Assembly (NCBI GenBank): GCA_964016885.1 | Contig: OZ024746.1 | Location: forward strand, 36,890,001 to 36,954,000 | DNA from: Eledone cirrhosa | Lineage: Eukaryota | DNA length: 64,000 nucleotides | Reading direction: 5' to 3' | Part shown: positions 10,697 to 64,000 of the stretch, in pieces | How positions within the stretch are numbered: the first letter of the stretch is position 1 | Layout: the number at the start of each line of letters is the position of its first letter | Program-made: the position numbers and the translations under genes | The notes under the pieces: model-generated | Database searches by the model: none | Seen by the model: only the letters and a program-made list of their open reading frames with translations | Told to the model about the DNA's origin: nothing

Positions 10697-10701
<5 letters not shown>

Positions 10702-11467
10702 AACGAGTAGGACCCCGACGGATGAGCTCAAGCCGTTTAGACGGCTAATTCTGGACTAAATGAACATTTTTATCCTGGTATTTGAATAGCCGAGCTTCTC
10801 AAGGGGTAATTCCATATATGGTCAAAGTGATTGTCACAGGGATTGGTCAAAAGTTTGTTGTTGAGACATAGTAATTCTATGATGGCAATTTGTGGAGGGA
10901 AGGGGTAGCTAAACCTGCCAGTAGGAGGAAGAGGGAGAGGGGTGAAGGAGACCCATTCATGCGTTGATAGTGCCGACTTTTTTTTTACATTTAATTGTTT
11001 TTAACACTCTCAGTATTATTCTATGTATTTACTCCTTATTGTTCTACTTACTGTTTCGACTTTCTCCCCCTCCCTAGTGTCTTCTTTGACCTCATGCCCA
11101 GCTGTAGTCGGCACTATCAACGCATGAATGGATCTCCTCCACCCCATCTCCCTCTGTCTCCTACTGACAGGTTTAGCTACCCCTTCCCTCCACCAATTGC
11201 CATCATATAATTACTATGTCTCAACAACAAACTTTTGACCAATCCCTGTGACAATCACTTTGACCATATATGGAATTACCCCTTGAGAAGCTCGGCTATT
11301 CAAATACCAGGATAAAAACGTTCATTTAGTCCAGAATTAGCCGTAGAAACGGCTTGAGCACAGCCGTCGGGGTCCTACTCATTCCTATTACCCACTCTAC
11401 TACCCTAAGTATTGTGTACTTTGGTGCGTTATGGTCCACCTGGCTCCTTACCACATTTCCTCCGTTA
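10697..11467 (+). mobile_element. PLE-type fold-back cassette, family A (longest copy), with hammerhead-like motif
   Basis: About 280-bp inverted arms 10697-10978 and 11106-11388, then a tail to about 11467. Right arm has ACCCC-ttgaga...CGGCTA...TAGCCG-ta-GAAAC-GGCT...AGCC-GTC-GGGGT. (TA)n on both sides. Confidence 0.8.
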
Positions 11468-18310: not shown

Positions 18311-19025
18311 ATTAATCCATAGGTTCAATCCTATATCTCATCCATATAACTGTTTTAAATAGTTAACGATTAATGAACACTATTTATTACGTTATATTCA
18401 ACACTCTAACAAAATGTTAACAGACATGCATTTAAACCTATTAAGAAAACCAGATTATTAATGAGATTTATTATTCGAAAATAAAATTCACTACAGGTAA
18501 AATTTCATTCTGACTACTCTAACACAATACAATACTTATACAAATTCTATTATTTTCCTACATACATATTCTTTTATCTAAATTTTACTTTTCTTTTGTT
18601 CCATCTATATTCCTCTACTTGTTCTATTTTTAGAACAAATTATTCCTCTTGAACAAAGAAATAACAAATATTTAGGATCGTTCTATACTATTCTACTAGA
18701 GATAACACACTGATATCTACACCGCTTTTCCTCCAACTTTAATATTCTTTGACCGTCCACACTTTTCTATACAATCTGTCTAAATTCCTTTACACTTGCA
18801 ACTTTCTTTTCTTTTCTAAAGGTCATCTGAAACCCCATCCCCTGAATGCTAAGCTATTCATCTACTACTACCAGATTAATAATCTATATTTCCCCTTCCT
18901 ATTTTTACTATTGGTCAATCTCAATTGTGTTTTTCTATTGGCCAAGAACATTGTCATTGTGGTGAAGTTAGAATTTAATGTAAATTTTCAGTTTAGATGT
19001 TGTCTTCCTGTTTATTCTACAACAA

Positions 19026-19642
19026 CTACAACGGTACGCGATGGGGCCCACCCACAGCCCCGGCGGACAGAATGGAAAAGGCGTTTCCCCGGAAGACGGC
19101 GAGGGAGACGCGTGGAAGAGCCACTCCAACTCACGGGTCTCACACCTGCGGCTGGCCAGCTCAGCGCCAATGGTGGTGAGTAAGAAGGTAGCCATGGGGC
19201 CGAGGACACCAGAAGTCTCCACTGCCAGGGGTACGACCGCAACCTGTCGGAGAGCGACCGGTATTTGAGGAGTTTGGCACCCTCAGCCCGTCGTGCAGCA
19301 GAACCTGTGTCAGTCGCAGACTGCACCAGGTTCCGGCTAGAGAAAGTGTCGGTGCAAGTGGCATCCCAGACGAGGGTTTTTACACCGCGGAACGGGAAGA
19401 TGGTCATTCCATCTGGCCTTTTGCCGTCTCCTCGATCCACACCCACCGGCTCGATCAGGGTAGGGAAGCCTGCAGCGTCTAAACCATGCTTAATGACCCC
19501 GTTGAGGGCAGAATGGCGTGGAATGCGGCCGACACTGTGGCGACAGGAAAGCGGGTGGAGGCCGAAAGAGTCCACAGTGGAACCGCAGCGACATGGGTGT
19601 GGCTAGCAGATCCGGAGGCCGAGCCTCAGGGAAACGCCGATG
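19026..19642 (-). mobile_element. CRE-clade non-LTR retrotransposon 3' fragment (CCHC finger plus RLE)
   Basis: CGSTVDSFGLHPLSC...RHSALNGVIKHGLDAAGFPTLIEPVGVDRGDGKRPDGMTIFPF...LVWDATCTDT, then VETSGVLGP...LAVFRGNAFSIL after frameshifts. Confidence 0.88.
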
Positions 19643-27109: not shown

Positions 27110-28060
<951 letters not shown>

Positions 28061-28149: not shown

Positions 28150-30044
28150 TTCTGAATTTGTTCAGCAAGATTCTTTATCTAAAAACATGTGTTGAGACCG
28201 TTATTGTTATGCTTTGGGAGGGCCATGTTGCCAATAAGAAACTCACGCAGAAGTTGCTTTCACTCCAATTTAAGAATTTATAAATTTCCGGTTGCTTGGT
28301 TGGTACCACAAATGGACGTTTGTTCATATATTGTCAATCTTTTTTCGTCACACATTATGTGACATCTTCAGTAATTGGGGATTATTTTCTTTGTTTTTGT
28401 GCCTCTCCTTTGTTCTGCCCTACGCCATCTTGTTTTTGCGTGAGTTGTGTGCTTAGTTTGCGCATGTGTTACATCCGGGTGCCTGTGTATTTATACTTGT
28501 TTATGTATTTGTTTATTTACATGTTACTGGTTGGTTGTTTGTTCTATGTGTGTGTGTTTGCCCTTAATTGTAAGTTGTGATGTTGCTATTCCATTCATGT
28601 TTTCCATTAAATTTTGGTTGGAGTTCATTTATGTTTATTGCCTCTGTGATTTGTCTAAACATTGCCTCTATTCTGTGTGTAGATTCTATTTTTATTTCTA
28701 TGTTCTCTAATTTACCCCATGTTCTATTTTAGCATGTTGGTGGAGTACAGATGATTCTTTTTTTATCTTGAAGCTCTCGCCAGTGTTCATTTATCCGTTC
28801 TGCTATACTACGAGCTGTCTCACTTATGTACACTTATTCTTATCTCTACATTGTCATTCAGTACATCTTTTGCTATATACTACATTTCTAGTTTTACAGT
28901 TAATATGGGGACTTATACATTTCTTATCTATACAGGGACGTCTTTGGAATTGTTATGTATTGCTAATAAGTGTTTTTATGGAGGTACCTGGTCTTTCTAC
29001 TATCTTAATATTGAGTTTATGTTTATCTAGGGCTCTTCTAAATGTGTAAGCTAATTCACTTCTAGGGGTTGTATCGAGGAACATTACCCTCTGGTATTTA
29101 TTGCTATATACCATGAGTTTATTCTATTAACCTTATCCCTAGTTCTTTCTATTCTATTCCAAAGTGTGCCCCTATACAAGGGGCATGTCCCATTTGTATC
29201 ATTATTTACCATTTTTTTCCATTTGCTTCTCGCTCCTCTATATACTCTGATTTTGTCTCTCTGATTGTAACCAGAGAACTGCATACGGTGGATGAAGTGT
29301 TGTATGTGTCTCTCTAGTTCTTTGGGGTTGCCCATGCGGGACACGTTTCTCATCACCCGTACTAAATCCCCAATCTGTATGTTGATTTTGGTGTGGTCCG
29401 AAACAGCTGAGTTTCGGTGGATCAGATATTTGGAAGTCATGGGTTTGGCATAATGGGGATGGATGATTTGTTTTTTGTTATTAATGGTTTCTAACCAGAG
29501 CTCTGTGTCTAGTAGATGTAATCGATGGCTGGGGTGTTTGCTTGGGTAGTTAATAGTAACTCTAATACTCTGGTGGATGGAGTTAGGTATTTGCTGGATG
29601 CTTTCCATGGTGTTTTTCTCTAATTCCTGACTGTTCTCTAGTGGGGGTGTTTTTACTACGATGTTTATATCATCAACATTGCTCTCACTGATCATTTCTA
29701 CGCATTTCTCCACAGCAAAATCAACGTCAATGGATGGATAAAGGGACACAACATCCATACTACCTATTATACAGTTAGTTAGGTCCCTAGATCGGTTACT
29801 TTCGCTCATTCTGCTGAGGAGGTCCTCCGTTCTGTCACATATATCTGGGACATTTCAATGATGAGGCGTATGATCAGGGAGAGGAAGTAGGAAAATCTGT
29901 AGTTACATGTTGTGCAACCAACCAACCAACCAATCGGAAATTTATAAAATCTTAAATTTATAAATCAATTTACAATAAATTGGAGTGAAAGCAACTGGTG
30001 CGTATGTTTCTTATTGGTAACATGACCCGCCCACCCCAAAGCAT

Positions 30045-36300: not shown

Positions 36301-37254
36301 GTGGTATATTTGCAAATAAAACTGCCTCTACCAATACACGTATGCATACACATAACTGAAACGTAACAGGATACTTATATATGCGACAAATACAATTCAT
36401 AGAGAAACTGTCTACCTACAAACTGGCTACTTCTCTACACAACTTTTAAATTAACAATTGTATATACTACATTTATTGGTGGTTTTGAATATACAATATG
36501 CTGCCGTTTACTGGTTAAAAGGATAGAGATAGGCTAACATACAATTTGTAATTTGAAGCACTTGTCATTGCTTCAATATTGTAACATCTAAGTGATAAAT
36601 GATTTCGTTTATTTAAACTGCATATTGAACGTCAACATATTTCAGTTATTAGTGGCTTGCTATGCTGTGTCTATTATCATTACTCCTTATAAAAATATAT
36701 GCATCGAAATAAATATGGATAAAGTTCTAGCTTCCGAGTGAATCAACACAATTCTGTTTCAATCTAAAAAATATGTTTTGCAGTTTTGAAAGCTTCTCTA
36801 TATTCTATATATCAAATATAAAATCTTTGAGAATCTGATGACGGTTTTAAGTGATATTAACATTAATTCACTCAACGTTGTTTTGTGAAACAGTGAATTA
36901 TAACTTTCTAATAAGAAAATCATTATCCGTAGATTATATTTGTTAAGGCCTAAATCTGAAGTAGAATGCTAATTCAAAATATATTCTTGATAAAACTATA
37001 GTGAAACTTATTTCATGCTGTAATATGAAAGGAATAATATCAGTGGGTATATAGCAGCAAGTATTCGAGAAAAAAATAGCAGCTAATGTCGAAACAGCAG
37101 TATCACTAGACAGAAGAATACAATTATGTCTGAATATTGCAAGCGTGAAAGAAAAACTGTGTCTGCAAATCAGGAAATAAGCTATTTACTAACGTATTAA
37201 TTCAATTATATTGTTTTCTGGGATTTCCTTTTGCATCCGGTATACTGTATTATA

Positions 37255-37442
37255 ATTGTTTTTAATTTTGGCACAAAGCCAGCAATTATCCCAGTGCATT
37301 ACTGGTACTTTATTTTATCGACCCCGTAAGGATGAAAGGCAAAGTCAACCCCGGCGGGATTTGAACTCAGACCATAAAGGGCCGTAACGCTTTGCTGGAA
37401 AGCATGGCGTTCGACCCTCTACCGATACTGCCAATCCAACTC
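37255..37442 (-). mobile_element. Nin/Deu-type SINE, full length
   Basis: Reverse complement of the consensus, flanked by a TATTATAAT duplication. Confidence 0.92.
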
Positions 37443-37482
37443 TATTATAATGATCAACAATCATTCAATGCAAGATTTAGTT

Positions 37483-38520
37483 TACAATATTAATCCTTAT
37501 AATCTTATCGGAGCTGATATGGCAGAAGCAAATGGTTTTCCTGTTTAAACCATTCAGAAACAATATTATGAGGATAACATCTCAGCTGCTATGAATATAA
37601 TGAACAGTTGTGAAGAGTTGTACAAAGAGAACAAATGTAGTTCAGACTGTCCGGAAATAATACTTAGCCACGGTGACATGTTTCGAATTTTTTCAATGAA
37701 ACAGAATTTTAAAGATCCCTAAAATTCCTGTTGTGATCTCGTACTTGTCTGAGAATCAATATTATACGCAATTTACAAAAGTGACTTCGAGGTAAATATT
37801 ACATTGCTAAATTTACTTGCAACCCTTCTGTGGGCGATAAGAAATACATCAAGCCCCTATTCAGAGAAAACTTTTCTAGTGTTTTCATTTTTATTTTAAT
37901 TAGTTCGTTTAGATGCAATCCTATTATCAAATAACATACGTCCTGATATAGCCTTTCAGGATATGGGATTAGTCCTTGAATATGAAATATTTCAGTTTTG
38001 TCTTAGAACATATAATGAAGCAAAATATATCGCTGAATATCTACTTACGTCAATTTAAATGATTTTACAGTATACTGTAATAATATAAGTATGAGGGGAG
38101 GTAATTAATTGGGAAACGGTATATCAGAGAATATACAATAAATTCAATATACATGAAATTAGATGCTATATACCCTAGCATATAAATCAGTGTTATTCAG
38201 TCATTGGTCACAGGAAAATCACGAGAGATAAAGTGTACATGTTTCGGGCTAATTGACTATTTTTATACAAGCACCCGTATGATCCAGTCCACGGAATCAC
38301 GGATATTCATACATATTTTTTATCAAATAGAAACACGTTCTTAACTGAAATAGCCGTATTTCTGATTACAAACATGTCCCGATTTGTGATTGATATATTG
38401 GGACGCGGAAATGCTCAACACGAAAAACCTTTAACGTAACTGCTAGCAAAACTATAAGAAGAAATGAGGCCAGTAAATGCGGCACGTTTCAAGAACCTGT
38501 AACAGCCTTTCTTCTACATT
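37483..38520 (+). pseudogene. Long decayed reading frame, unknown product
   Basis: By manual translation, one frame of about 345 codons has about 12 stops, fewer than expected at this AT content. Examples: VRLDAILLSNNIRPDIAFQDMGLVLEYEIFQFCLRTY and YKHPYDPVHGITDIHTYFLSNRNTFLTEIAVFLITNMSRFVIDILGRG. Confidence 0.45.
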
Positions 38521-39699
38521 CATTAAAAAAAAATGTGAATGTAGACTGAGCATATATATATATATATATTTATATATGTATGTTCAGTCTACATTCACAT
38601 TTTTTTAAATGAATGTAGAAGAAAGGGTGATCCTTGGAGGGTTCCGTGATCGCCGAAGTAGTTACAAATATATAATCACTTACAGAGTAGCAATACCATG
38701 TACATAATGATTTATTTTAAGTATTTGCATATGTTTCATGGGCGTATTTGGAAGACCATCTGGAAGTCACTAACCCCAATAATCTAACGGGAAAAATCGA
38801 ATTCAAATACGGTGTAATATTGTTTTAACAAAAAAATTGTCAAAACAGAATAACGACTTGTATTAGGGAGGACCTTATCAGATGGGTAGGCGTGTAGATG
38901 GGAAAAGAGTAGACATAAACGAGGAGAAAGACATTAAAATATAGAAATGAAAGAACGAACAAAAGAAAACCAGTTATTAAGAGTATATATAGAGAGAGAG
39001 TTCATAGTAGAGATTAAAAGTTTTTGGTGTTTGGTGAGTGGGTTATCTTGTTGGGCGTGGGAAGTCAGAGTCGGTGGGGTTGGTTGCTGATACGCTTACG
39101 AGGTGATTTGTTTTCCTCCGAAAAAAAATGTATTTCTCAACCGGAGAATATATTCTTCGGCCGAGTCGAAGAGGTGAAGTGTAAGTTACTTGGACCTGGA
39201 GGATACTCTTTCGGATGTCAAAATTATACCAATATACTCAAACACTTACACCGTCCACCAATATAATTTATCTCTATATTCCTGTCTATCAGTAAATCAG
39301 TTTACTAATCAAAATCACATTTAAATCACAGAAAGATAAAACAATATCACGGAATGGTGAAGTTTTCAACAATTGTAAAATGTACATAGACAAATGACAG
39401 GTCGTAACACTACACCTACAATATAGAAACACAACCACAAAAGTTACTCATTACAATACTTTCATAGACATGGCACACGAGATAATATGATGTAAAGGTT
39501 TTAAGTTCTTCTTTTAATAATCACATTGTAAACTGTTTGAAATACGTTCTTATTCTACGTTCACTTCCACCACCTACACACAGGTATAAAATCACACACA
39601 CACGCACATACACAGAGCCGAGAAAAATACCTTCATAATTAATTTCCTAAATATTCCAATAATTCCCTTCGAAATTTGGAATTATAAGATAATAGACTC

Positions 39700-39777
<78 letters not shown>

Positions 39778-39782
<5 letters not shown>

Positions 39783-40130
39783 GTGAGGTTTTTTTTACAA
39801 TATGAAAAATAACCGAGGTGTCCTACATGAGTGAAAGTATAAAGAATAAAAGATGAAATCGAAAATGCAACTGGAGTCTTATTTAAAAAAAATATATATA
39901 TATTTATTTGGTTCGTTTACCGGTTTCGCAGTTCTTCTGCTTTTCAAAAGTGAAGTTGAGATGGAGGGTCTGTGGTTTTTCTCACATCTGATGTGAGAAA
40001 AACAACAGACCCTCCATCTCAACTCTACTTTTGAAAAGCAGAAGACTTGCGAAACTGGTAAAGGAACCAAATACATATATATATATATATTTTAAATAAG
40101 ACTCCAGTTGCATTTTCGATTTCATCCTTT
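39778..40130 (-). mobile_element. Fold-back palindromic cassette, family D
   Basis: About 280-bp near-perfect palindrome 39848-40130 centred on 39989, containing GCGAAACTGGTA. One-sided tail 39778-39847. (TA)n flanks. Confidence 0.75.
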
Positions 40131-40152
40131 TTTCTATATATATATATATATA

Positions 40153-40341
40153 GGTGAAGAGTCAGGACCCGACGGAAGATTTCAAGCTGTTTCGACGACT
40201 ATTTCTGGACTCTTTCAGTCAAGAAGTACCCGTCGAAACGGCTTAAGCTCTGACTCTTTTCCTATTACCCATTATACTACCCAAAGTATCGAATACTCTG
40301 GTGCGTTAGGGTATATATGGTTTCTGACCACACTACCTTCG

Positions 40342-40345
<4 letters not shown>
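40153..40345 (+). mobile_element. PLE-type fold-back cassette, family A
   Basis: AAGAGTCAG...TTTCGACG and CGTCGAAAC...CTGACTCTT arms, followed by the family-A tail. Confidence 0.75.
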
Positions 40346-40392
<47 letters not shown>

Positions 40393-40453
40393 GATATGTG
40401 TGTGTATGTGTGTATGTGTGTATGTGTGTATCTGTGTGTGTGTGCGTGTGTGT

Positions 40454-40493
<40 letters not shown>

Positions 40494-40974
40494 GGGTGTG
40501 TGTGTGTACATATTCGGTTGATGTTGGATGGCTGCAATGATTGGTAGTTCTAGTTAATAGCCGTCGATAATGTTAAAAACAAGACCACTCGAGACGTGGC
40601 ATCTCGTGGCTGGTCGACGAAAGGAGGTAAATACACAGTGCAGAGGATGTCTATCACAGTGTACGCATCACTGGATTATCCGCCTCCTTATATTTTGCCG
40701 GAATCCAGTAGTGAATTCTGAACTGAATCTGCTAATATTTTAAAACTTATATGTTCATTACACCTGTAGACATTACCGATTATGCTCCATCATGGTCTCA
40801 TGATGGAGCATAGAAATACGTATTTTTTACTCAAAGAGTACATTGCAATGTCACCTTTCAATAAATATATGGAACAGCTGGCAGTAAAAATTGTTACTTA
40901 CACAAAAATAGGAAAGTGATAGAAGTGTTCGAGTATATATATCTATATATATATATATGGATCGATCGACTTTC

Positions 40975-41172
40975 GTCAAATCGGACCGAGGAAACAATGT
41001 TTCCGTCGGTCTTTCCAGTTGCTAGTACTATCTATCGGTCGCAACTCCCGGTAGAAAGAACAACGTGAAATAAAGTGTCTTGCCCAAGGACATAACGCAT
41101 CGTACGTTCCACGAATCGAACTCACAACCTGAAGGTTGTGAATCCAATTCTCTAACCACTCAGCCACACGCC
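40975..41172 (-). mobile_element. tRNA-headed CORE-type SINE
   Basis: Minus strand: A-box TGGCTGAGTGG, B-box GAGTTCGATTC, then TGTCCTTGGGCAAGACACTTTATTTC. Confidence 0.8.
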
Positions 41173-42677
41173 TTTACATATATACACATATTATTGCGAG
41201 GTACTAAACCTCTTTAAACTTGAGTTTCGCCTGTAAACTCAAAGCATAATAAGAAAAAGGCGCGCTGATATGTGTAACATTACTTAGCCTTCGTACATTT
41301 TCCTTCGTGGTTTTATTGTCATTAATATCTTTCAATCAATCATTTTTAGACTGCATTAATCGGATTCTTGATATATTTTGTTTGTAGTTTCCATATATAT
41401 TTCGTTTTTCTTAGCAATTGTACATTTTTATATCTCTTTCCATACTTGTCATTTCATTGCAGTATTTTTTGCAATGTTATCTCAGTTTTCAATGTTGTAT
41501 ATATATGTGCTACCTAAACTATTTTCATGCTTCATTAATTATCAAGGAAAATCATGAAATATAGTCTGAATTACTTCCTTTTGTTTTTGGTGCATTTCTA
41601 TTCTGCTAATGGGTGTGCCTTACAATATTCAGTAGACGCTTCTTATTACTTATGTGTATGTTTGTGTTGATTCAATTTAATTTAAAACAAAATGATCATG
41701 AAATAAGATAAAGCTATATTTTATGCACATGATTACACACAACCTGCACACATATATTTGCATATATTCATAGTATATAATGTTTCTACGGTACTTATTT
41801 CTAATGTGTACCGCTATTCCCTAAATCTCTAATAAAGTAGTTATAATTCATCTGATTACTTGCACGTTCTTTATCACAAATCTGTACTGAGGTTTATTCG
41901 TTGGCTTATTGTCGGTTGTTATTCTTTTTTTCTTTTTTTGTTTGTGCATAGGGGCATTGGTGCTGAAGACGTTGGTGGAGGTAATACTAGATTAGAAAAC
42001 TGAAGATAGATCTCAACAATACAACGTTTCAGCAAGTTACACATTTCTCTCTCTCACTCTATTCGTCTTTCCCTCTCTCTCTTTATCATGTTTTTCTTAC
42101 TCTCTTTTATGCTTACTCTCTTTCCTCATCTATCTTTCACTCTAACCTCTCCCTTTTTCTCATTCTTTTTCCCTGAGTTTCAGCATACCTTTTTAAGTCG
42201 AAGAGCTAGCTTACCAAAATGTGATACAAAAATACGGCAAAAATACAGATTTCAAGTGGTTCGTTTAGTATGTGATATCTCTATGTCTCTTGTTGTATTG
42301 TATTGTTGTTGAAACTGTTGGATTTAAGGGTTTTAATAAAGTCGTTCTTGATCACCATTTTGCTGTTTGTGCTCTTGTGATGTCAGTTAAAAATGTCACA
42401 TCATATAACGTATTCACGATTGCATACGAGTTTCGATTTTATGTTTTTTTGATTTCTGTGACGTCGGTGCTAACTATATCTCATGCAATAAACTGTACCT
42501 ATATATAATAGAAAACGAAAAATCAGTGAAGTATCTGATCAATTTATTGTGTGTTGTAAATGTTTCTACTCTATGATACTCTGTTCTGTAAGAGCATAGA
42601 GTGCTCAACCGAGATACCGCCTATGGAAGCATCTTAGTTACCATCAGACACACACACACACACACACATACATACAT

Positions 42678-42734
<57 letters not shown>

Positions 42735-43599
42735 GAATTGAAATATGTTTCGTTAAACCTCAGGCTTCCTCTAATAATCAGCCCCCCGACCTTTTTTCTC
42801 CCTTAATATCTGACTTTCTATAGCTCACTTTTCAATCCTGTCCATCAAGCCATTTTCTCAACGGTGTGACAAATACATTTCCTATCATAACGGTATAACA
42901 AACGTAAGAAACCAATTAAAGTCTTAACTGTGACCCAACACTGCTAATCCACACTTCGTTTAGCGGCCTTTACCATTTACTCCGTTCTACCCATGTCATT
43001 TAAGTGAAATTGGGTTCAGGCAAACTGTTTTTTGGAATGTTGTGGGATGGACTGTAACAATAATGCAAAGCCGTTTCACCCACTTTGCACTGCTGAATCT
43101 CCCTGCGTTAAGGGAACACATATGTCTGTCAAATGAACAGTTTTCAGCTGAGGTTGTTCCTTTAGCCGATGATCTCGTATGTTTCCCGTCGAAACCGACG
43201 TTGCTACATAGTATGTGTGATGTATTGTACAATATGATCGAAAGACGAAGCTCGTAAATGGTCGCCAGACTAGATAGGAATGGCAGCCCAAGTCGCTAGG
43301 AGACTATTTTGGCAGCAAATATCGCATTTACAAATGCACCATTGCAGCCGCCTATAGTCAATTTTCATGTACCATACAATTCCATACTATTTTATTTCCT
43401 TAGATATATTACAATTTCGGGAGTGACTTACATGTAAATCGGACATGATATAAATTATAGAAGATAATTCTTGGCAGATTATGTCATTTTCAGAAAATTT
43501 CCAACCAATTGAACGTTGAATTTGCTAATATAACATATGTAAATAAAATATAAATATTGTAGAAAGATCATGGATAGCACTATCGACTTAATACATATA

Positions 43600-44090
43600 C
43601 CTCTATATATTTGCCTCTGGGTATAGTTAAAGTACACTCTCATGCTAAAAATTAGGCTATAAATTAAAACATATACATATGGAACTGCGAATGATTCCCA
43701 TAATAACAGCCAACTCTTTATCTATGGTACATTGTTCTTTTCGTGAGCTGGGCATGTATTAATGTTTCATGATATGAAATAGTTTCTATCTGATGGAAGC
43801 AAATCTGTGCTAGATAGGGAACACATATCAATATTCAATTTCGGAATGATATGCTATGTTCCTCTAACATTTGGATGATATCTCCCATGCAATCTGAATG
43901 TTCAGCAATTGTATTTATAGCATAGTATTTCTCTGCATATTCGTTTTGTTGCTATTTTATATGAGCAATATTTATAGCTCATATTACATTGTTTTCTTAT
44001 CGTTCTTATCAATCTTATTGCTCTCTATATCTCTTCTAATCTTTCCTTCACACAGACTGTGTATCTATATCTATCTACCGAACTATCTCT

Positions 44091-44186
<96 letters not shown>

Positions 44187-46130
44187 CATATACTGACATT
44201 TGTATGTTTATTCATCTCTTTCTTTACTCATCACCAATATCTCCAAATTGTGCACGTGCTCTTCCACTTTATATGCAGATTTCAATGTTTCGTTTTCAAG
44301 GTCTCATTAATTCTTTCTTTCTTTCGCAGGAACTGCACCTCCACCCCTACGCAAAATGTTTATATTATCGTTCTTGAATATTAATGGACTTATATTTTTG
44401 TTAGCGTATAACATTTTCTGGATACGCTCCACCCCCTATCTCTCTCTATCACACACGCCCACACACATCCTTTCTCATTACTATGTCACACACTAGCATT
44501 GTCATACACAGCATATGTATATAACTATGCGTGTAACAATCCAACAATTGCAACTCTAAGGGAGGATATATCTGTAGAAATTGAGTCTTTCCAGCTCTAT
44601 GAGATGTTGCGACTAGAATGCGTGGATGACTGATTGCATGTTAAAGTAGTCATTTGAAATTTACATTTACAGTCATATATTTGCCGCTGAGATTCCGATA
44701 GACGAACCGAGACCTGAGAAATGGGCTGATAATGAGGACATGCACATACATATTTTTTATTATATTATATAACATCATAATATCATTTCGATAGTAAACA
44801 ATAAGCAAACCATCGTTGTTAGTTATAAAGCCTTCCAGTTCTTTCTTTCTTTTGCATTTTAGGTGGTAGGTCAGGCAATGGAAACCAACGTTAATTTTCT
44901 GAGAGTATTATCTTTGTGTGTGGCTTTGATTAGCAGAGATATTTGCGATTCTCGTACGTGTGTCTAGTTGGGAAATATTTGCTTTAATGTGTTATTTCAG
45001 CATGCAAACTATTCCTCTGTAGGAGTCAGCATGGCTGAATACACCAGCAACACTTCCAAACAGTATTTGTGGATATACACATGAAATATATTCCTACACT
45101 TGAAAATGTTCTGCAAGATGTTGATGAAAGTTTTCAATCTGCGCTTTATGCGTGCAAGTCAAAATCTATAGTTGATGCACCAAAAGGAATATGAAGATAC
45201 TTGCTTGATTCCCTCCGAATAGTTCTAATTAAAAGCTGATCAATTAAGGATTTACCACAGGTATTGGTAGTTTGGAAGCTAAATCAACATTCATCTATAT
45301 TCATGTGAATACCGTTTTTTGTAAAGCTATTAACATATCTTGTCGATCTCCATCCAACACACTTGAGCCCTCTCTTTCTTCCATTATCATCATTCCATCT
45401 TGGATTTTTTTAAATGAGAAATCATTTACCGGAGGATTTGTGGCAAACTCGAGCGCATGACTTCATTTATCTTTCTTAAGGCATTTTGGGAATTGTCATT
45501 TATTGTATAATATAAATAAACACATATCTAATTTTCACATCTCACAATACAACTACCATATTTGAATGTCGTATACTTTTCTATATATATATTCAACAAA
45601 TATTCTTCTTGCTGATTTTACAACAAAGCCTATGTATTGAGCAAGGTCGTTGTAGCAATATCCCCACTCATGACGTTCTCAGAGATGATCGTGTGTAAAG
45701 TTTGATATTGGAAATTTCCTCGTTCTAAATCCACTTTATTCTCATTGTCTGAGCATTAACAAATCAGTTTGATCACATTTCCTAAAACTTACTTACTCAG
45801 CGGTTCCCTAACGATAATATCCTTCAGGTAACATTCGCCATGTATAACATGTATGTTGTGTATTAACGTAGTTACTAAAAAAGTATGTCTGAATTGATTA
45901 TCCTTTGATTTTACTGTGTCCTATATACTGTCCAATGTTGAGTTTGTGCAGTCTCTTAGTTGAAAGGAAAGATTGTCTGCACTGCCTCGATTTCTATGAC
46001 ACCTGCTTTTAGTTTCAATAATATGTCCTGCTGTTACCGAAGATTTGTATTCCAGCACCTACACTATGCATGAGCATGTCATTTCTTTTCTAAAATTGTT
46101 GAAGATTGAAGATTACCGTAACTGAAAGTT
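43600..46130 (-). pseudogene. Decayed SF2 (RecQ-like) helicase gene with N-terminal extension and a probable intron
   Basis: Manual translation across frameshifts gives I LP.TCGKSLIDQL (45236-45270), Ia ASIFIFLLV (45178-45204), II IVCM.EI.H (about 44987-45012), III KPHTKIILSE (44897-44927), IV DGLLIVYYRNDI (44780-44815), V PRILVATS...DISSLRVAIVGL (44537-44625) and VI DIIQML (43865-43882) after an AG acceptor at about 43894. Confidence 0.55.
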
Positions 46131-47045
46131 TAGATATGGTAGGCTAATAACACAGTTAAACACTGTGACTATGCAACTGTAGCAGCATATATTTACGATA
46201 TTTTATTGAATACTTTGCGGTCTCTGTAATGAGGAAGGTATGTATTTTATTTTTAATAGTCAATGTTTGCCCAGTCTTTGGAGCCACTGGTATACCGAAC
46301 CATTGCAAAACTAAAGAAATAATTTGAGCTGAATCGTTAGTGAAAAACGTGTTGCGAAAATACGCATATGTTAAACAGAAATCAATAAAATGCTATTTAA
46401 AGATCTCACGATTCTTCCTCAATTCAGAACGTCAGGATACATTATGTTAGGCACTTCGTATAGAGCATGGAATGTAGAATATGTAACGGAACATTCATAA
46501 TTGATTTTTTTTAAATGGTCAAGAGACACTCACATATGAGTTCCCTATGATGTTGTATTTTGAATAATCCTTTAATATATCTAAGCGACTCTACGTTATA
46601 CTTTTAAGCTGCCTTTTAAAATCATTAATCGTTTATAATCATCCTCATTAATTGACAGCGTTATTGCATCACTAATCTCATTGCTGCAAGACAGGAAGGC
46701 ACTGTCAACTCTCATTAACACGTTGCCAGCTTATACAGCTTCTATAAAATGTCCCTAAATTGAAATACCTGCATTGTGTTAGGCGAAAATGTAGACAACT
46801 GAAATAACGTAATGATTTTTCTCCATACTGACAATCAGATGAAATGCTACAGTTTTCTCATGTACTTACTAGCGTATTTAGAACATTATTCATACTTATT
46901 TAGTCGTAGAGAACTGCCACATATTTGTATAAACCGTATATGTGATCTCATATACTCTAACCAATACAAATACCACAACGGCTGTATTTCCTTAATGTTA
47001 ACGAAGACGTAGTCATAGAGACTGTCAGACGAAACTAAAATTCTT

Positions 47046-47180
47046 GCGTTACGGCCCTTGCCATTCTCAGTTCAAATCCCGCCGAGGTTAACTTTGCCTT
47101 TCATCCTTACGGGGTCGATAAAATAAAGTACCAGCAATACACTGGGTTATTGCTGGTCTTGTGCCTAACGTAGAAATAGT
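47046..47180 (+). mobile_element. Nin/Deu-type SINE, 5'-truncated
   Basis: Consensus B-box and central domain. Confidence 0.9.
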
Positions 47181-49399
47181 TATTTAGATACTAGTAATTA
47201 ATGTTAATATCACTTAATATAACTAAAACAAATGTGTTCAGCCGGTTGTAAAGAATGAAAGGCAAATTTAACTGCGCTGAGATTCGGAACCGAAGCGCAG
47301 CGAATCGCAACAGAAACCACAAAATATTTGCTCCTCTACTCCAAAGATGTTGATAATCCAGGTAAATATATAATATGTTTCTTCTCTTAATCACCATTTC
47401 AAAATGTTATTGCTACGCATTTCTTTAAAGCTTTTAGTGCATGACTTCATGCTATATGTGTCTCAAAACAAATGTCACCCGTGTAGTGATAACGTCGGGC
47501 ATGCCCTCAGATTATGTAATGACATTTACATTAAGCCTTGCTTAATTTCTCAGGACATTATTATCGCATTTATCTTTAAAAGGAATTACTTCTATAACAA
47601 GAAGCAGTTCAATGATCATTTACACACAACCCACGCATAAAGAATGAGATACTAATACAAACATATTGATCTGATCAATATGATGGAAGCTATTGTCCCA
47701 AGTTTTAATTCCGAGAAGAAACATATCTTCCGAATTTTATATAAATCTGGGATATAACGTGTAAACCACAGACGCAAGGAGCATATGAACAACATAGCAC
47801 AAAAAACACTCCTGTAAACATGGGAATAGTCTGAGTTAGGTTTGACCTTTATCTCCCCCAACCTTGTGGGTGAGACTAGTATATGCTATTGTTATTTAAC
47901 GCAGGCGTTTACATATCTATTAAGGGATGTTATGTTTCGATTACTGCTGTTAATATATGAAAGTAATGTTACATTTCACCGCATCCATAGTATTAAGTTT
48001 CAAACGTATGCGTGTATTAAATGCTAGGGCAGATATAGCTAAGCTTCCGAAACAGTTCGTCATTTTTTCTGTTATATTTTCTTCCATTCATACCGCATCC
48101 ACTATACCACAACTGCCACAGCCATTGCGCTAGTAATTATCGTAGTTATCTACAAATAATTATCGTAGTTATCTACAAAAAAATTAATGATTATATTATT
48201 TCCATTAACTTTCTTATCCGTCTAGTTATCGTGTACTATTATTCATATATTTATAGGCAAAATGTTGGGAATTTTAAAGCAGCGTTGCCAACTTGGCTAT
48301 CAGGCAATATAATACTTTAGTAACGCATAATAGATGTTGGATTTGAACAAAAATATAAAGGAAATCACTAAATGCCTCATAATGAATTGCTCATCATTAT
48401 AATACTATTAATATTACTAAGTACTAATAATAACCAGAATCATCACAATGCAATTTAATTGTATGTGAATTAATAAACCAATGGTTATCTAGATATGATT
48501 GGCACCCACATATAAACTACGGGAACAATCTCTGCTAATTACACGTACCTGCGAAAATGCCAATAGAAAAATAATACAGCATTTCAAAATTCAGGAAACA
48601 ACGTAACTCTTACTAAATTTGATATGTTTTTTTCCAAGATAAATGATAATGTATTAATTATCGATAGAAAAATACCAAATAACAATGTTGTGTAAAACTG
48701 ATTTGAATGTATATGAAATTACAGCGTTGAAACTATAGAATTGAACCATTGAATCATAGTATTTATAATTTTTACAACTAAAATATTACACAAATACTTA
48801 AGAAAAAAATGCCAAACAAACAAACAATAACATATAAATAAGCACACTTCAGGTAGCAGTACTCATATTTGTAAATATTGCATAAAAGGAAATATTGGTG
48901 CATTTCTGAAAGCAAGAATAAATTAATATTTTAATATTAATGTAGATTGATTCTACTTCAAACAAGTACTTTTTCCTCATTCAATGTCTTGGAAAATAGA
49001 CATTGATACGCAACGTATTTCATTTAAAGTGAAGTGAGTTCTCTACAGATTTGAACGGAAAACTTACGGGAGAAATACAATCATTTGCAGTGTTTAATCC
49101 AACGTTCTAGAAGCTTGAATTAATACATTAAACTCAAAGATTTTATAAAAGTATTCATACTAAATTTTCATAATCCGTGACAAATCATTCCACGTCATCA
49201 TTATGTGTTCGGATTCATAGATCATTTCGTTATAATTAAATACGGATCATTAAAAAGTAGTAGAAATATTTGCATCAATATCTCATTAAAAATGATTTAC
49301 ACCGTTCTGCATAAAATATATTTTCTAATTTAGTGCAAGTTCATACATTTTCCAAGAGCATAATTAGACGCTATCTAATTTAGTGAACACGGAAGGATA

Positions 49400-52342: not shown

Positions 52343-52516
52343 AGGGCGGTGAATTGGCAGTATCAGTAGAGAGTCGGACGCCATGCTTTCCAGTATAGTT
52401 ACGTCCCTTTACGGTCTGATTCCAAATCCCGTCGAGGTTAACTTTGCCTTTCATCCTTACCGGGTCGATAAAATAAATAACCAGTAATGCACCGGGTAAT
52501 TCCTGGCTTTGTGCCA

Positions 52517-52547
<31 letters not shown>

Positions 52548-54979: not shown

Positions 54980-55100
54980 TGATCTGAGTTCAAATCCCGC
55001 CGAGGTTGTCTTTGCCTTTCATCCTTAAGGGGTCGATAAAATAAAGTGCCAGTAATACACTGGTTAATTACTGGCCTTGTGCCGAACGTAGAAACAATTA
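54980..55100 (+). mobile_element. Nin/Deu-type SINE, 5'-truncated, within an (ATG/ATT)-rich tract
   Basis: Consensus B-box and central domain. Confidence 0.88.
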
Positions 55101-56599: not shown

Positions 56600-59500
56600 T
56601 AATAATAATAGAAATTAGAACGCAATAAGCCTGACCTGGTCGTTTTGGACACGGAAAAAATCGTGCCTGATTGTAGATGTAGCCTGCCCATTTAACACGA
56701 GAGTGCAAACATAGGAGAGGGAGAAAATTAACCGATACCAGGACTTAAAGTGTGAGCTAAAAAGGATTTGGAACTGTCATGACGTCAAGGTCGCCCCGAT
56801 TGTCATAGGCGCACTAGGTACTATCTCAAGAGTTTCCAAGGATGGTTAAAGAGAGTTAGTCCAGCTCCGCTTTTTGGAACACTTCAGAAGTCCTGTTTGC
56901 TGGGAACAACAAGAACCCTCCAATACGTCCTGAATATCTGAGGCTTCAGGTAGCGGCTTTATATTCATTACAACAAACTTTCCAGTTGAATAACATCAAT
57001 GACTGAGACTCAATAATTATAATAATAATAATTGATGCCTGGTGAGTACCAGAGTGGTTGACAAAAGGTACCACAGTTCTAGTAATGAACGACCGTATCA
57101 AGGGTAATGATGTTACCAACTATAGACCTATCACGTGTCTGTCCGTAATGTGGAAACTGTTGACAAGCATTGTGTCTAAGGAAATCTACCATCACCTCCA
57201 CACAAACAACTTGTTACCGGACGAACAGAAACGATGCCGAAAGAAGTCCCGTGGTACAAAGAACCAGTTACTTATTGATGAGATGGTAATGAGGAATTGC
57301 AAGAGGAGACACTGTCTTGCCATGGGATGGATAGACTACAAAAAGGCATTTGACATGGTGCCCCATCCTTGTATCACCAAAATCCTAGAGATCTTCAAGG
57401 TGGCAGATAGCATCAGACAGTTGTTGGCCAAAAGTATGAAGTCCTGGAAAATCCTTGGGAGGCGTGAAGATCAAGAGAAGTATCTTCAAGGGAGATAGTC
57501 TGTCCCCTCTGTTGCTTGTCCTTGCCATGATACCCCTGATGCCCCTGACCATTATACTGCGAAAAGTGAGAGCAGGATACAAGTTGGAAAAGGGAGAGCT
57601 TACCATCAATCACCTCCTCTTCATGGACGATCTTAAGCTCTTCGGGAATATTGAGAAGGAGTTGGATGTGCTTGTTGACACTGTCCGTATTTTCCGCAAT
57701 GATATATGTATGCCATTTGGTATTAGTAAGTGTAGAGTCCTTGTGATGAAGAGGGGTAAATTGAGCAGAAGCAACGGAATCCTGGTACCAACAAGTGAGA
57801 TGATAAAGGAAATTGACACTGAAGAAGTATACAAGTATTTGGGTATTCTGGAGGCTGATGACATCAAGAAAAAATAAAAGAAAGAATTGATAAGATCTGA
57901 ATACATTCGCAGTGTAATGAGCGTATTAAAGTCACATATGAAGAGTAGGTATGCCATAAGTGCAGTAAATTCCCGAGCTGTGTCTATTATTAGGTACAGT
58001 GCGGGAATTCTGAGATGGAATGTTGCGGAACAAAAAGAAATGGATAGGGAGACTAGGAAGCTATTGACTACCATACAACATTTTCCACAAGAGGAGTGAT
58101 GTCGATAGACTCTACTTAAGGAGATCTGAAGGTGGAAGAGGTCTTATCAGCATAGAGGACTGTGTTCAGATGGAGAAAAAGACCTACACAAATACGTAAC
58201 CGATAGTAACGAGCCAATGCTCAGAATTGTACTGAAGGAGAGGAAAATAGACCAGGGGATGTCCAAGGAGGATTTAACAACGAGGAGTAAGAGCAACATT
58301 CATGAAAGATCCCGTCATAGTACCTTCTTTGAGAAAACTGAATCAGAGATCCACGGATATGGAACTGGTTGAGAAGAGGAGGCCTCAAAAAGGCTACAGA
58401 AGGAATGCTAATGGCTGCGCAGGAGCAAGCCCTCAAAATGAAGTGGTTGAAACACCATATTTACAAGGAGGAGGCTATACCACTGTCCAGGATCTGTGGA
58501 GAGAAAGAGGAGACTGTGGCTCACATGGTATCCGAGTGTACACACCTAGCGAAGACTCAGTATAAAGGCTGGAGACATGATGTAATGGGCAGGGTGATCC
58601 ACTGGTACCTATGCAAAGTAAACAATTTACCACATTCTGAGAAGTGCTATGAGCATAAGCCAGAGTCGGTGATTATAAACAATCAGGTGAAGGTGCTATG
58701 GGATTTTAGGATACAGACGGACAAGAAACTGGAACACAATAGAACTGACCTGGTGGTTTTGGACAAGGAAAGAAGCTCGTGCCTGATTGTGGATGTGGCC
58801 TTCCCATTCAACACGAGTTGCAAGAGAAGGAGAGGGAGAAAATTAACCGATGCCAGGACTTAAAGTGGGAGGTAAAAAGGATTTGGAACTGCCATGAAGT
58901 CAACGTGGTCCCGATTGTCATAGGCGCACTAGGTACTATCTCAAAAAGTTTCCAGGGATGGTTAAAGAAAATTGGCCCTCCCCCGCTTTTTGGAACTCTT
59001 CAAAAGGCATGCTTGCTGGTAACAGCAAGAACTCTCCGATACGTCCTGAATATCTGAGGCTGCAGGTAGTGAGTTGATATTCATTTCAATAAAATTTCCA
59101 GTTTACTAACATCAATGACTGAGTCTCAAAGAATAACAATAATAATAATAATAAATGTTTGTCCTTGTTAGTCCTTGCCCTGATACCCCTGACCATTATA
59201 CTGCAAAAAGTGAGAGCAGGACACAAGTAGGGAAAAGGAGGGAGTACCATCAACTACCTCCTCTTCATGGACGATCTTAAACTTTTGGGGAAGAGTGAGG
59301 AGTTGGATGTACTTGTTGACACTGTTCATATTTTCAGCAATTATATATGTATGCAATTTCGTATTAATAAGTGTGGATTCCGAGTGATGAGGAGGGGTAA
59401 ATTGAGCAGAAGCAACGGAATCCAGGTAACAACAGGTGAGATGATAAAGGAAATTGACACTGAAGAAGTATACATGTATTTGGGTATTCTGGTGGCTGAT

Positions 59501-61825
59501 GACATCAAGAACGAACAAAATGAAGGAATTGCTAAGATCTGAATACATTCGCAGTGTAAGGAGCGTATTAAAGTCACATATGAAGAGTAGGAATGCCATA
59601 AGTGCAGTAAATTCCCGAGCTGTGTCTATTATTAGGTACAGTGCGGGAATTCTGAGGTGGAATGTTGCGAAACAAAAAGAAATAGATAGGGTGACTAGTA
59701 AGCTATTGATTATCTACACCATTTTCCACAAGAGGATTGATGTCGATAGACTCTACTTAAGGAGATCTGAAGGTGGAAGAGGTCTTATCAGCATAGAGGA
59801 CTGTGTTCAGATGGAGAAAAACAACCTACACAAATACGTAACCGATAGTAACGAGCCAATGCTCAGAATTGTACTGAAGGAGAGGACAATAGACCAGGGG
59901 ATGTCCAAGGGGGAATTAACAACGAGGAGTAAGAGCAACATTCATGAAAGATCCCTTCACAGTACCTTCTTTGAGAAAACTGAAATCAGAGATCCACGGA
60001 TATGGAACTGGTTGAGAAGAGGAGGCCTTAAAAAGGCTACAGAAGGAATGCTAATGGCTGCGCAGGAGCAAGCCCTCAAAATGAAGTGGTTGAAATACCA
60101 TATTTACAAGGAGGAGGCTAGACCACTGTCCAGTATCTGTGGAGAGAGAGAGGAGACTGTGGCTCACATGGTATCCGAGTGTAAACACCTAGCGAAGACT
60201 CACTATAAAGGCTGGAGACATGATGTAATGGGCAGGGTGATCCACTGGCACCTATGCAAAGTAAACAATTTACCACATTCTGAGAAGTGGTATGAGCATA
60301 AGCCAGAGTCGGTGATTATAAACAATCAGGTGAAGGTGCTATGGGATTTTAGGATACAGACGGACAAGAAACTGGAACACAATAGAACTGACCTGGTAGT
60401 TTTGGACAAGGAAAGAAGATCGTGCCTGATTGTGGATGTGGCCTTCCCATTCGACACGAGAGTGCAAAAGAAGGAGAGGGAGAAGATTAACCGATACCAG
60501 GACTTAAAGTGGGAGGTAAAATGCATTTGGAACTGCCATGAAGTCAAAGTGGTCCCGATTGTCATAGGCGCACTATGTACTATCTCAAAAAGTTTCCAGG
60601 GATGGTTAAAGAAAATTGGCCCTCCCCCGCTTTTTGGAACTCTTCAGCAATATATATGTATGCAATTTCGTATTAATAAGTGTGGACTCCGAGTGATGAG
60701 GAGGGGTAAATTGAGCAGAAGCAACGGAATCCAGGTAACAACAGGTGAGATGATAAAGGAAATGGACACTGAAGAAGGATGCAAATATGTAGGTATTCTT
60801 GAGGCAGATGACATCAAGAACAAAAAAATTAAGGAATTGATAAGATATGAGTATATTAGGAGAGTAAGGAGCGTATTAAAATCACGTCTACATAGTAGGA
60901 ATGTCAAAAGTGCAGGGAATTCCCGAGCTGTGTCTATGATTAGGTACAGTGCGGGAATTCTGAAATGGAATGTTGATGAACAAAAAGAAATTAATAGGAT
61001 GACTAGGATGCTATTGACTATCTACAACATGTTCCACAAGAGGGGTGATGTCGATAGACTCTACTTAAAGAGATCTGAAGGTGGAAGGGGTCTTATCAGC
61101 AGAGAGGACTGTGCTCAGATGGAGAAAAACAACCTGCACAAATACGTGACCGAATTCAGGGAGCCAATGCTCAGAATTGTACTGAAGGAGAAGACAATAG
61201 ACAAGGGGATGTCCAAGGAGGAAATAACAACGAGGGGGAAGACCAACCTTCATGAAACATCCCTTCATGATACCTTCTTTGAGAAAACTGAATTTACAGA
61301 TCCACAGATATGGAACTGCTTGGAACGAGGAGACCATAAAAATGCTATAGAAAGAATGCTAATGGCTGCGCAAGAGCAGGCACTCAAAACGAAGTGGGTG
61401 AAACACCATCTTTACAAGGAGGAGGCAAGCCCACTGTGTAGAATCTGTGGAGAGAGAGAGGAGACTGTGGCTCACATTGTATCCGAGTGTAAACACCTAT
61501 CCCAGACTCACTATAAAGACTGGAGCCATGATGTGAAGGGCAGTGGGATCCACTGGCACCTATGCAAGTTAAACAATTTACCACGTTCTGAGAAGTGGTA
61601 TGAGCATAAGCCAGAGTCGGTGATGGAAAACGATTAGGTGAATGTCATGTGGGATTTTAGGATACAGACGCATAAGAAACTGGAACACAATAGGCCTGAC
61701 CTGGTGGTTTTGGACAAGGATAAAAGATCTTGCCTGATTGTTGATGTAGCCTGCCCATTCATGTAAACACACTTTCCAGTTAAATAACATCAATGACTGA
61801 GACTCAAAGAACAATAATAATAATA
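56600..61825 (+). mobile_element. Tandem array of Dong/R4-clade RLE LINEs (family 2): 56600-57030, 57040-59150, 59155-60645, 60646-61825
   Basis: RT motifs NYRPITCL, WIDYKKAFDMVPH, IFKGDSLSPLL and HLLFMDDLKL. Zinc knuckle CRICGEREETVAHIVSEC. RLE VLWDFRIQTD...R(P/T)DLVVLDK...CLIVDVA.P. Most units end in GACTGAG.CTCAA + (TAA)n. Confidence 0.95.
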
Positions 61826-61930: not shown

Positions 61931-64000
61931 TTTTCTTTATTAACCACAAGGGTTCACATAAAGTAGACATTAAGGACAGTACAGGACAATACAGGATGGT
62001 ACAAATGGGCATTTCTGCGTGTAAAAAAAAAACAGAGGTTGAAATAAAATAACAAAGAAAAATTCCCCAATAGGGGGGAGACTTCCAAGGGACATTTGTG
62101 GAGAAAGCCCATTAAAAGACCACAGTGGCCCTGACCACCAGGGCAAGTGCCCTCTCCCCGTTTTCCACCTTTAATTTACAGACACATACTCAGAGAAGGC
62201 CCATTCATTCGGGCCATACTTGCTTCTCTCACCCATCTTTCAACAAAATGCTGGGAAGAGAGCACTCCCTCTCTACCCTGACTTTCCTTTTCAAATGAAA
62301 TTTGAAAAAGTTAATCAGGGCATCACCGAAGAGGTAAGTGCTCGTCTTCAGCCCTTTCAAACGTGTCCACCATACTATCTCTTTCGCCATGGCCACCAGA
62401 CAGATAAAAACTGCCTGCCCTTCCAGGCTAAAGGAAGGGGGCGGGGAAATCCTCACGATGGACTCAGCTGATAGCTGGATAGGTCCTACACGTGACAGCA
62501 GGTGTTCGACATAAACCCACAAGTCAGCAATGCTCGGACACTGGACGAGTGCGTGCAGGACGGTTTCGTCGCCCTGCGCGCATCTCGGACATGCCCGGCT
62601 GACGGCACCTCCATGCCTGTAGAGTTTATCCCGAACTGGCAAAGCTCCTCGGTAGCACTGCCAGGCCAGGGATTTCTGGAAGTTGTCCATAGGCCCCGGC
62701 CCAAAAGTCCTTCCGAAGCGATTGGCTAGTTGATTTTCGTCGACGCCTAGAGTTTCTCCAAGTACGTCGTCGCTCTTCCCCTCCACTAATCCTCCTATAG
62801 AACGCCAAGGTGGAGTTTCCACCGATCACATTGCCCGATTGGTCGAGGGCTGTGAGCGCCTGAAGACATTCCAGTCTCCAAGCGCTCCCTCTCGGTCTTC
62901 GCTTGACCCAGGACTGCAGCTCCGTCAAGGAGACGAGCTGGGGAAAAACGTGTCTTGCAAACGGCGACCACACCTGATCACCGTCGAGGAAGAGGTGGAG
63001 ATGTCGTAGCCTGAGCGCGTGTCTGCGCATCATCAGCCACGGCATGCCCAGCCCTCCACGTAGCGGGTGTTGACAGCAGATGGACCGCCTGACCATCGGA
63101 GCGCGTCCCTTCCACAAGAAGCGAAAGAGCAAACGCTCCAACGCAGTCAGGCGGGGCTTAGGACAAGGTACGACGGTCAGGCGGTAGTAGATGACGGATG
63201 CGATGTACGCATTCGCCACCTCCGCTCGACCTTTCAGGGATAGCTTCCTCTCGGCCCATTTCTGGGTGAGAGAAGCCACCCTGCTCGTCACCTCGTCCCA
63301 GTTTTTGTCCGTCTGGAGGTCTGGACCGAACCAGACCCCTAGCAATTTAACCGGTCCGTCCGTCCAGCGCCCGACGACGCTGTTGGACGGCATGGACCTG
63401 CCTCTCCAGGTGCCGAGCTGCAGGCCCACTGACTTTTCCTGGTTGATCATTGCTCCTGTCACCGCTTCGTATTCTCTTAGTGTAGTGCCGATCGCCTCGA
63501 TGTGTTTGGCGTTCGACACCACTACGGTGACATCGTCGGCATATGCTGACACGGATCTTCCGCATCCTAGTTCGCGCGGGACCCCCCTCAACGTCTCCAG
63601 TTTGTGCAGTAATGGCTCGAGAGTCAATACGTACAATAGGGACGAGAGGGGACATCCTTGGCGGACCGAGCGCATGATGTTGAACGGTTCCGAAAGGTGA
63701 ACGTTCACTCTCACTACAGAGCAGATGTCGCTGTGCATGGCAGCGATCCAGCCTCTGAAGACGGGCCCAAAGCCAGCCGCCCTCAGGACTGCCGCTAGGT
63801 AACGATGGTCGACCCTATCGAAGGCTTTCGACTGATCTAAATTGATCAAAGACCCACCCGTGCCAGGTTCCCTAGCTACCCTCTCTACGATGTATCGCAT
63901 GAGGTGGAGATTGTCGTGGATGGATCTGTCGGGAATGGCGCATGTCTGTGCCTCTCCCACCAGACCACCAACGACAAGCGCCAACCTCTTTGCTAGCACC
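61931..64000 (-). mobile_element. Tx1/L1-clade LINE, RT to 3' end (continues beyond the window)
   Basis: ORF 62626-63999: LDQSKAFDRVDH, VRQGCPLSSLLY, YADD. ORF 62229-62822: CPRC...ETVLHALVQC. AATAAA then (ATT)n at the 3' end. Same family as 7063-9405. Confidence 0.95.

Follow-up and report, generated by a model that had tools for sequence, protein, structure and literature searches.

The window, that is the whole 64,000-nucleotide stretch of Eledone cirrhosa DNA analysed here, consists of AT-rich animal DNA (35% GC) with many microsatellites and retroelement debris, and on its minus strand it carries a run of short words that resemble the motifs of an SF2 helicase (Table 1). The initial annotation had read these words by eye, through stops and frameshifts, as a broken RecQ-like helicase, and all of those that it quoted are indeed found on the minus strand, in the order given, between 45285 and 43865. 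For the reading of the stretch as a relic, nine words in SF2 order on a single strand are counted.

Table 1. Helicase-like words, the pieces that hold them and adjoining features, in window positions
Feature	Position	Strand	Frame and remarks
Walker-A-like part, resembling RecQ-type motif I	45233..45285	-	split over frames -3 and -2
Motif I word	45262-45233	-	frame -2; LP just before in frame -3
Ia word	45204-45178	-	frame -3
Ib word	45075-45049	-	frame -3
"II" word, split	45012-45001 and 44998-44987	-	frames -3 and -2, respectively
III word	44926-44897	-	frame -2
IV word	44814-44779	-	frame -3
V word, split	44625-44602 and 44572-44537	-	frames -3 and -2, respectively
VI word	43882-43865	-	frame -2
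Piece with Ia, Ib and first half of II	45001..45204	-	frame -3; 68 codons, 2 stops
Piece with second half of II and III	44897..44998	-	frame -2; 34 codons, 2 stops; core residues absent
Longest one-frame stretch, including IV-like and first V-like words	44593..45075	-	frame -3; 161 codons, 4 stops
Piece with second V-like word, then stop	44531..44590	-	frame -2
VI-like part	43865..43909	-	conserved Gly-Arg out of frame
Spacer between V and VI	43900..44530		631 bp, A-rich, (TA)n/(GA)n at 44086-44192
Most coding-like segment, upstream of motif I	45310..45477	-	frame -3; 12-13 bits, 14/300 shuffles

Motif words, spacer and breaks in frame

If the words are read as one protein, the frame has to change five times between -3 and -2 and 8 stops are met in 318 codons; for the piece holding the second half of II and III an alternative register keeps frame -3 throughout. 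The in-frame cores of the helicase motifs, namely the DE of II, the SAT/TAT of III and the GR of VI, are all absent; no single frame holds an intact DExx (II), SAT/TAT (III) or QxxGR (VI), which is expected of a decayed gene and hence not decisive. Motifs I and V lie 212 codons apart. The spacing of the motifs, which had been called broadly plausible, is too short between III and IV, where 37 codons are found as against about 60-110 in five models used for the motif chain.

Between V and VI the initial annotation had seen a microsatellite-rich segment of roughly 640 bp, and had taken it for an intron ending in a CAG acceptor. Its length is about right, its richness is not, only 122 bp being microsatellite, and the intron is not supported, an in-phase donor and a pyrimidine tract both being absent: 9 of the 20 nucleotides upstream of the CAG are pyrimidines, and the CAG is in phase 1, whereas the GT sites ahead of the in-frame stop are in phase 0 or 2 (phases read off the sequence). 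A target-duplication reading of the spacer was rejected, since the direct repeat at its ends (9 of 11 positions) is no better than chance would give (41 of about 500 random pairs). The spacer is best called inserted or expanded sequence.

The stops and frame switches within 44250-46900 are true genomic breaks and not read errors. This span, outside of which the part with the VI word (43865-43909) falls, is covered by one short-read contig in each of two runs, with 6-7 substitutions and no indels among the motifs, both runs coming from one sample that is possibly the assembly's own source; RAD reads from a second study agree with the assembly at 45001-45230. Short-read depth over 44250-46900 is flat and no long paralogous contigs or copies were found at 85% identity or more, which makes the stretch single-copy. 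At 46754, outside the motif region, public contigs of the same organism show a 10-nt insertion, a polymorphism.

Frame -3 is stop-poor: the three frames of 44452-45480 hold 11, 31 and 17 stops, and the longest one-frame stretch, which spans Ib to V, may be set against a background of 6.1% stops per codon. A stop asymmetry of comparable size was present in all 20 of 20 shuffles of the 45-kb region. The segment upstream of motif I lies near the 99th percentile of shuffled tiles. Further upstream, 45480-46100 (-) may hold another decayed coding piece: 7 stops interrupt the 207 codons of one frame, versus 19 and 13 in the others.

Helicase profiles, motif chains and chance

Frameshift-aware profiles were built for bacterial RecQ (3 sequences), animal RecQ-like (27 full-length of 120, plus fragments), YprA/Hrq1-like (17 of 80 loci long enough), A18-like (78, from giant-virus contigs) and UL9-like helicases (12 of 23 loci); settings under which long gaps are cheap led to over-alignment, and their runs were left out. 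Along the proposed motifs all five SF2 profiles, both local and end-to-end, gave shuffle-level scores beyond motif I, and no significant alignment was obtained for any family tried, which is the outcome that the initial annotation had itself set against its call. The order of the words stands; support above chance from profiles or chains, whether measured against shuffles, tiles or models with deranged motif orders, is not confirmed.

Chance is a rival source of the words: once five frame switches, the stops and the missing cores are granted, AT-rich non-coding DNA, perhaps with a decayed frame of another kind in it, may supply such patterns by itself. We hold this tentatively, close behind the reading that we prefer. 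Several results speak for it. With profiles not selected on it, motif I scores 11.9-13.6 bits, which is reached in 3 of 15 whole-window shuffles and equalled or exceeded at other places in the window; a score of 21-22 bits (21.4) was set aside as circular, since the profile had been selected on that very word. The pooled motif chain reaches 38.8 against 32.0 ± 3.5 for shuffles, and scores as high are found in 8 of 200 shuffles and in 12 of 49 other tiles of the window; without motif I the chain is matched by 39 of 200 shuffles. For single-family chains the number of shuffles per hundred reaching the observed score was 33 (animal RecQ-like), 62 (bacterial RecQ), 21 (RadD), 8 (A18-like) and 1 (YprA-like, along an untraced path), the YprA-like figure counting for a relic and not for chance. 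The best local match of the YprA profile (0-1/100 shuffles, one background) was rejected as lying upstream of motif I and out of order. The VI word scores 3.3 bits in the pooled chain; with the UL9-like model it has 6.4 bits, a value equalled in 156 of 200 shuffles. Also in line with chance, the register in which this DNA is fitted changes from family to family, and on the coding test clear relics elsewhere in the window score 23-294 versus 13 for this stretch.

Motif order is likewise without effect on the fit, as chance would have it. A generic model of coding linkers and motifs gave a z of about 3 (1/300 shuffles), its best path running off the motifs of the initial annotation, and 87 of 200 models with deranged motif orders scored as well; DeaD, HsdR and Cas3 controls for the z test, probably taken on the wrong strand, are left out of account. 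When the model was restricted to the motif region the true order landed on the annotated I-IV sites, yet 188 of 200 deranged models scored as well; of eight decayed helicase controls, five beat all 30 deranged models. The coding-like signal is therefore not specific to SF2 order, because deranged motif orders fit as well.

Against chance, the marginal excesses recur on the same frame and strand, and the tests are underpowered for an SF2 gene outside the models at 20% decay: controls of that kind scored -3.5 to +9 bits over their own shuffles, where the window scores +6.8. Control genes from in-model families reached 80-103 on the chain test at 20% decay and 51-63 at 30%, versus 38.8 for the window. 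The profile results and the controls together make close membership of the RecQ, YprA/Hrq1-like and A18-like families unlikely and leave room for an unusual SF2 helicase. For the RecQ family, host or bacterial, no profile-level similarity was found across the helicase core, and decayed RecQ controls scored well above the window.

The putative "RecQ-like" label draws on motif I and on a non-significant alignment over IV-V. The animal RecQ-like helicases used for comparison come from coral-type contigs (P0004-P0123, L027-L146) and are presumably of AcademH type; they share the wording of motif I with the stretch, and the best alignment of frame -3 to them places motifs IV-V in register over a similar length, with scores not above shuffles. 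In HHalign comparisons of frame -3 with two animal RecQ-like alignments IV falls on IV and V on V (p 0.058 and 0.072), which is no better than for off frames (p 0.069), and a glocal run, whose path has no frameshift, also lands in the IV-V register, at a score reached by 61 of 200 shuffles. The animal RecQ-like helicases differ from the stretch in having about 290 codons between motifs I and V as against 212, a Cys-rich RecQ zinc region after VI and an exon boundary after motif II. Diverse RecQ-like helicases in two open frames, split just after motif II, were also seen in metagenome contigs (L076, L077, L085, L087, L105); they have a Cys-rich region after motif VI and thousands of relatives, including some WRN-like ones in corals.

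Likeness to other SF2 helicases is confined to short pieces. Around the Ib word 24 residues resemble E. coli RadD (YejH), with which nothing else aligns; this best pairwise match (45069-44998, 21.5 bits, reached by 4/200 shuffles) was picked after the fact from 26 proteins. Single words resemble motif V or VI of YprA/Hrq1-like, NCLDV A18-like or UL9-like viral SF2 helicases, while the whole profiles of these families along the motifs do no better than shuffles.

Database searches yielded no relative. Pfam searches with single frames read through with X, a treatment in which frame switches lower the power, gave no relevant match for 15 queries, DEAD, ResIII and Helicase_C included, so that no significant match points to SF2 membership in single frames. 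NCBIfam, PHROGs, PDB, phage and viral-contig searches with X-read frames returned nothing, a word-based protein search and Rfam gave no match, and a plasmid search gave a single match (E 2). When viral sequences were scanned with patterns derived from the motif I of the window, 0, 3 and 13 stretches were picked up, none of them related beyond the word itself. With phmmer, frame -3 had no match at E<=0.001 among 1.84 billion representatives; in simulated relics with relatives at about 36% identity this search recovered 14, 4 and 0 of 18 when decay was set to 15%, 25% and 35%, respectively, and the roughly 10 stops in 317 codons of the window's frame lie at the low end of the 15%-decay simulations (7-18). 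Malacoherpesvirus helicases were covered indirectly, through the word-based search and phmmer. Single-sequence fold predictions of the stretch are uninformative, that of 44560-44907 having a pLDDT of 36.5 and no fold match at E<=0.001.

Surroundings of the stretch

The stretch lies within 10.4 kb bounded by two inverted copies of a 22-nt sequence (36847-36868 and 47196-47217), which match perfectly and have TTAA at their outer ends; the longest match in 100 shuffles was 17 nt. The pair may be a dispersed short repeat, and its perfect identity fits badly with the decay inside. Helicase-carrying lineages of Academ and Kolobok transposons are known (PMC10799480, PMC9587614, PMC10045372), and the pair is what the stretch has in common with KolobokH and Kolobok-1_CCri as described in PMC9587614. 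There KolobokH is a Kolobok carrying a RecQ helicase, reported only from fungi, and Kolobok ends have the signature 5'-RR...YY-3' with a TTAA duplication; here TTAA is present, while the inner ends start with GT rather than RR and no DDD/E transposase was detected. AcademH is described in PMC10045372 with a 9-10 bp target-site duplication around inverted ends. At the stretch neither a transposase nor such a duplication was detected, and none of the 15 flanking inverted pairs has a duplication of 8-11 nt, though old ends may have decayed. The Academ transposase is without a Pfam model according to PMC5751038; a tblastn comparison of 30-55 kb with the reference loci collected, bearing on that transposase, had a best E of 0.05.

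No transposase or viral hallmark gene was detected near the stretch. Pfam scans gave nothing meaningful, either in 46.1-54.6 kb (six frames) or in most of the frames at 33.4-43.8 kb (all but those of 39.7-42 kb and, at 37.1-39.7 kb, two on the plus strand). Two plus-strand frames on the VI side of the stretch are stop-poor. At 37450-38500 (+), which may be the region's strongest candidate for a decayed gene still to be explained, one frame of 350 codons has 11 stops versus 28 and 30, and the segment at 37.3-38.0 kb has a coding score of 14-15.5 bits, equalling or exceeding the highest of 192 shuffled tiles; an Atlas look-up (0.95, unnamed/TPR-like, low recognition) serves as a lead only. The other, at 42964-43560 (+), converges on the stretch with 97 open codons and 5 stops in 185, has no Pfam match and gave an unnamed Atlas hit (0.75), again a lead only; over 42964-43520 (+) the three frames hold 5, 12 and 10 stops.

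Elsewhere in the window, relics of non-LTR retrotransposons occur at 8836-9342 (-), 57046-57874 (+), 59448-61634 (+) and 62229-62822 (-), called from RVT_1 or zf-RVT matches of which some are under the curated cut-off. Coding-like relics with no Pfam matches occur at 2965-3848 (+), 19012-19602 (-) and 29087-29854 (-), which would seem to resemble, in that order, the start of a Helitron, the end of a retroelement and a reverse transcriptase of Penelope type. Small palindromic or inverted-arm elements are found at 38503-38629, 39838-40140, 10697-11388 and 27402-28009, and one dispersed SINE-like repeat, presumably octopus-like, has copies at 37294-37410, 47046-47134, 52378-52517 and 54983-55044.

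Origin of the stretch and what it would mean

The reading that we prefer, at evenly balanced confidence, is that the stretch is a dead SF2 helicase relic of a mobile element of no assigned family. What is observed is that there is no intact frame, that the stops and frame switches are fixed and that neither copies at 85% identity or more nor a known relative were found. In favour of this reading count the nine ordered words, the few stops of frame -3, the z of about 3 of the coding-plus-motif model, the IV-V register reached by both HHalign comparisons and one glocal run, the YprA-like chain, the single copy with its true breaks and the existence of helicase-carrying Academ and Kolobok lineages. 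Against it count the empty database searches, the profile scores at the null, the equal fit of deranged motif orders, a stop asymmetry that shuffles also show, the short spacing and the lack of a transposase or viral hallmark gene in the neighbouring frames scanned. The stretch would once have encoded two RecA-like domains, from motif I to VI, and the helicase would have worked on the DNA of the element itself, as in AcademH, KolobokH or large DNA viruses. A mobile element probably brought the gene in long ago, after which neutral decay would have removed sequence between the motifs and the 631-bp spacer would have been taken up between V and VI, presumably leaving no function today; indeed, no present-day function of the stretch is evident.

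Within this reading the balance tips slightly towards a RecQ-like helicase of transposon type and away from a viral one. As a viral sub-case, the stretch and the frames at 37450-38500 (+) and 42964-43520 (+) would all derive from one endogenous large DNA virus, since decayed, with the stretch as one of its genes. The two neighbouring frames with their few stops, together with the coding score at 37.3-38.0 kb, would agree with this, and the lack of relatives would suit an unsampled virus, yet 37450-38500 (+) has no Pfam, PDB, viral-contig or word-search match, the A18-like and UL9-like profiles remain at the null, nothing was found in 46.1-54.6 kb, no hallmark genes neighbour the stretch in the scanned frames and the stop asymmetry is at chance level, so we consider this unlikely.

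It is more doubtful still, and indeed quite improbable, that the TTAA-flanked inverted repeat delimits a 10.4-kb element (36847-47217) with an SF2 helicase outside the five families and two opposite-strand genes of no assigned function. An origin as an ordinary pseudogene from a host RecQ, HRQ1 or Ski2-like gene would be favoured by the likeness of motif I to a RecQ-type Walker A, but it is highly improbable in view of the far higher chain scores that in-model families (eukaryotic HRQ1/Ski2-like profiles lying outside the models) keep at 20% and 30% decay, of the phmmer search, in whose library conserved animal orthologues would be expected, and of the low stop count, which argues against more than 30% decay.

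The initial annotation had put the stretch forward as the best anchor for identifying the surrounding fossil, and the results give it no support in that role. As it stands, the stretch mainly shows that motif chains drawn by eye through frameshifts can fail calibrated tests. According to PMC10294476, the reported occurrence of Academ and Kolobok in molluscs is nearly confined to bivalves, and in the cephalopod literature that we searched no report of such an element was found. If the 10.4-kb element were true, it would be an undescribed lineage of helicase-bearing transposons or DNA viruses in a group from which Academ and Kolobok are reportedly nearly absent. If the dead helicase is real, it would be one more mobile-element helicase gene among relics of an already known kind, and the stretch would then matter only as the trace of an unsampled element family.
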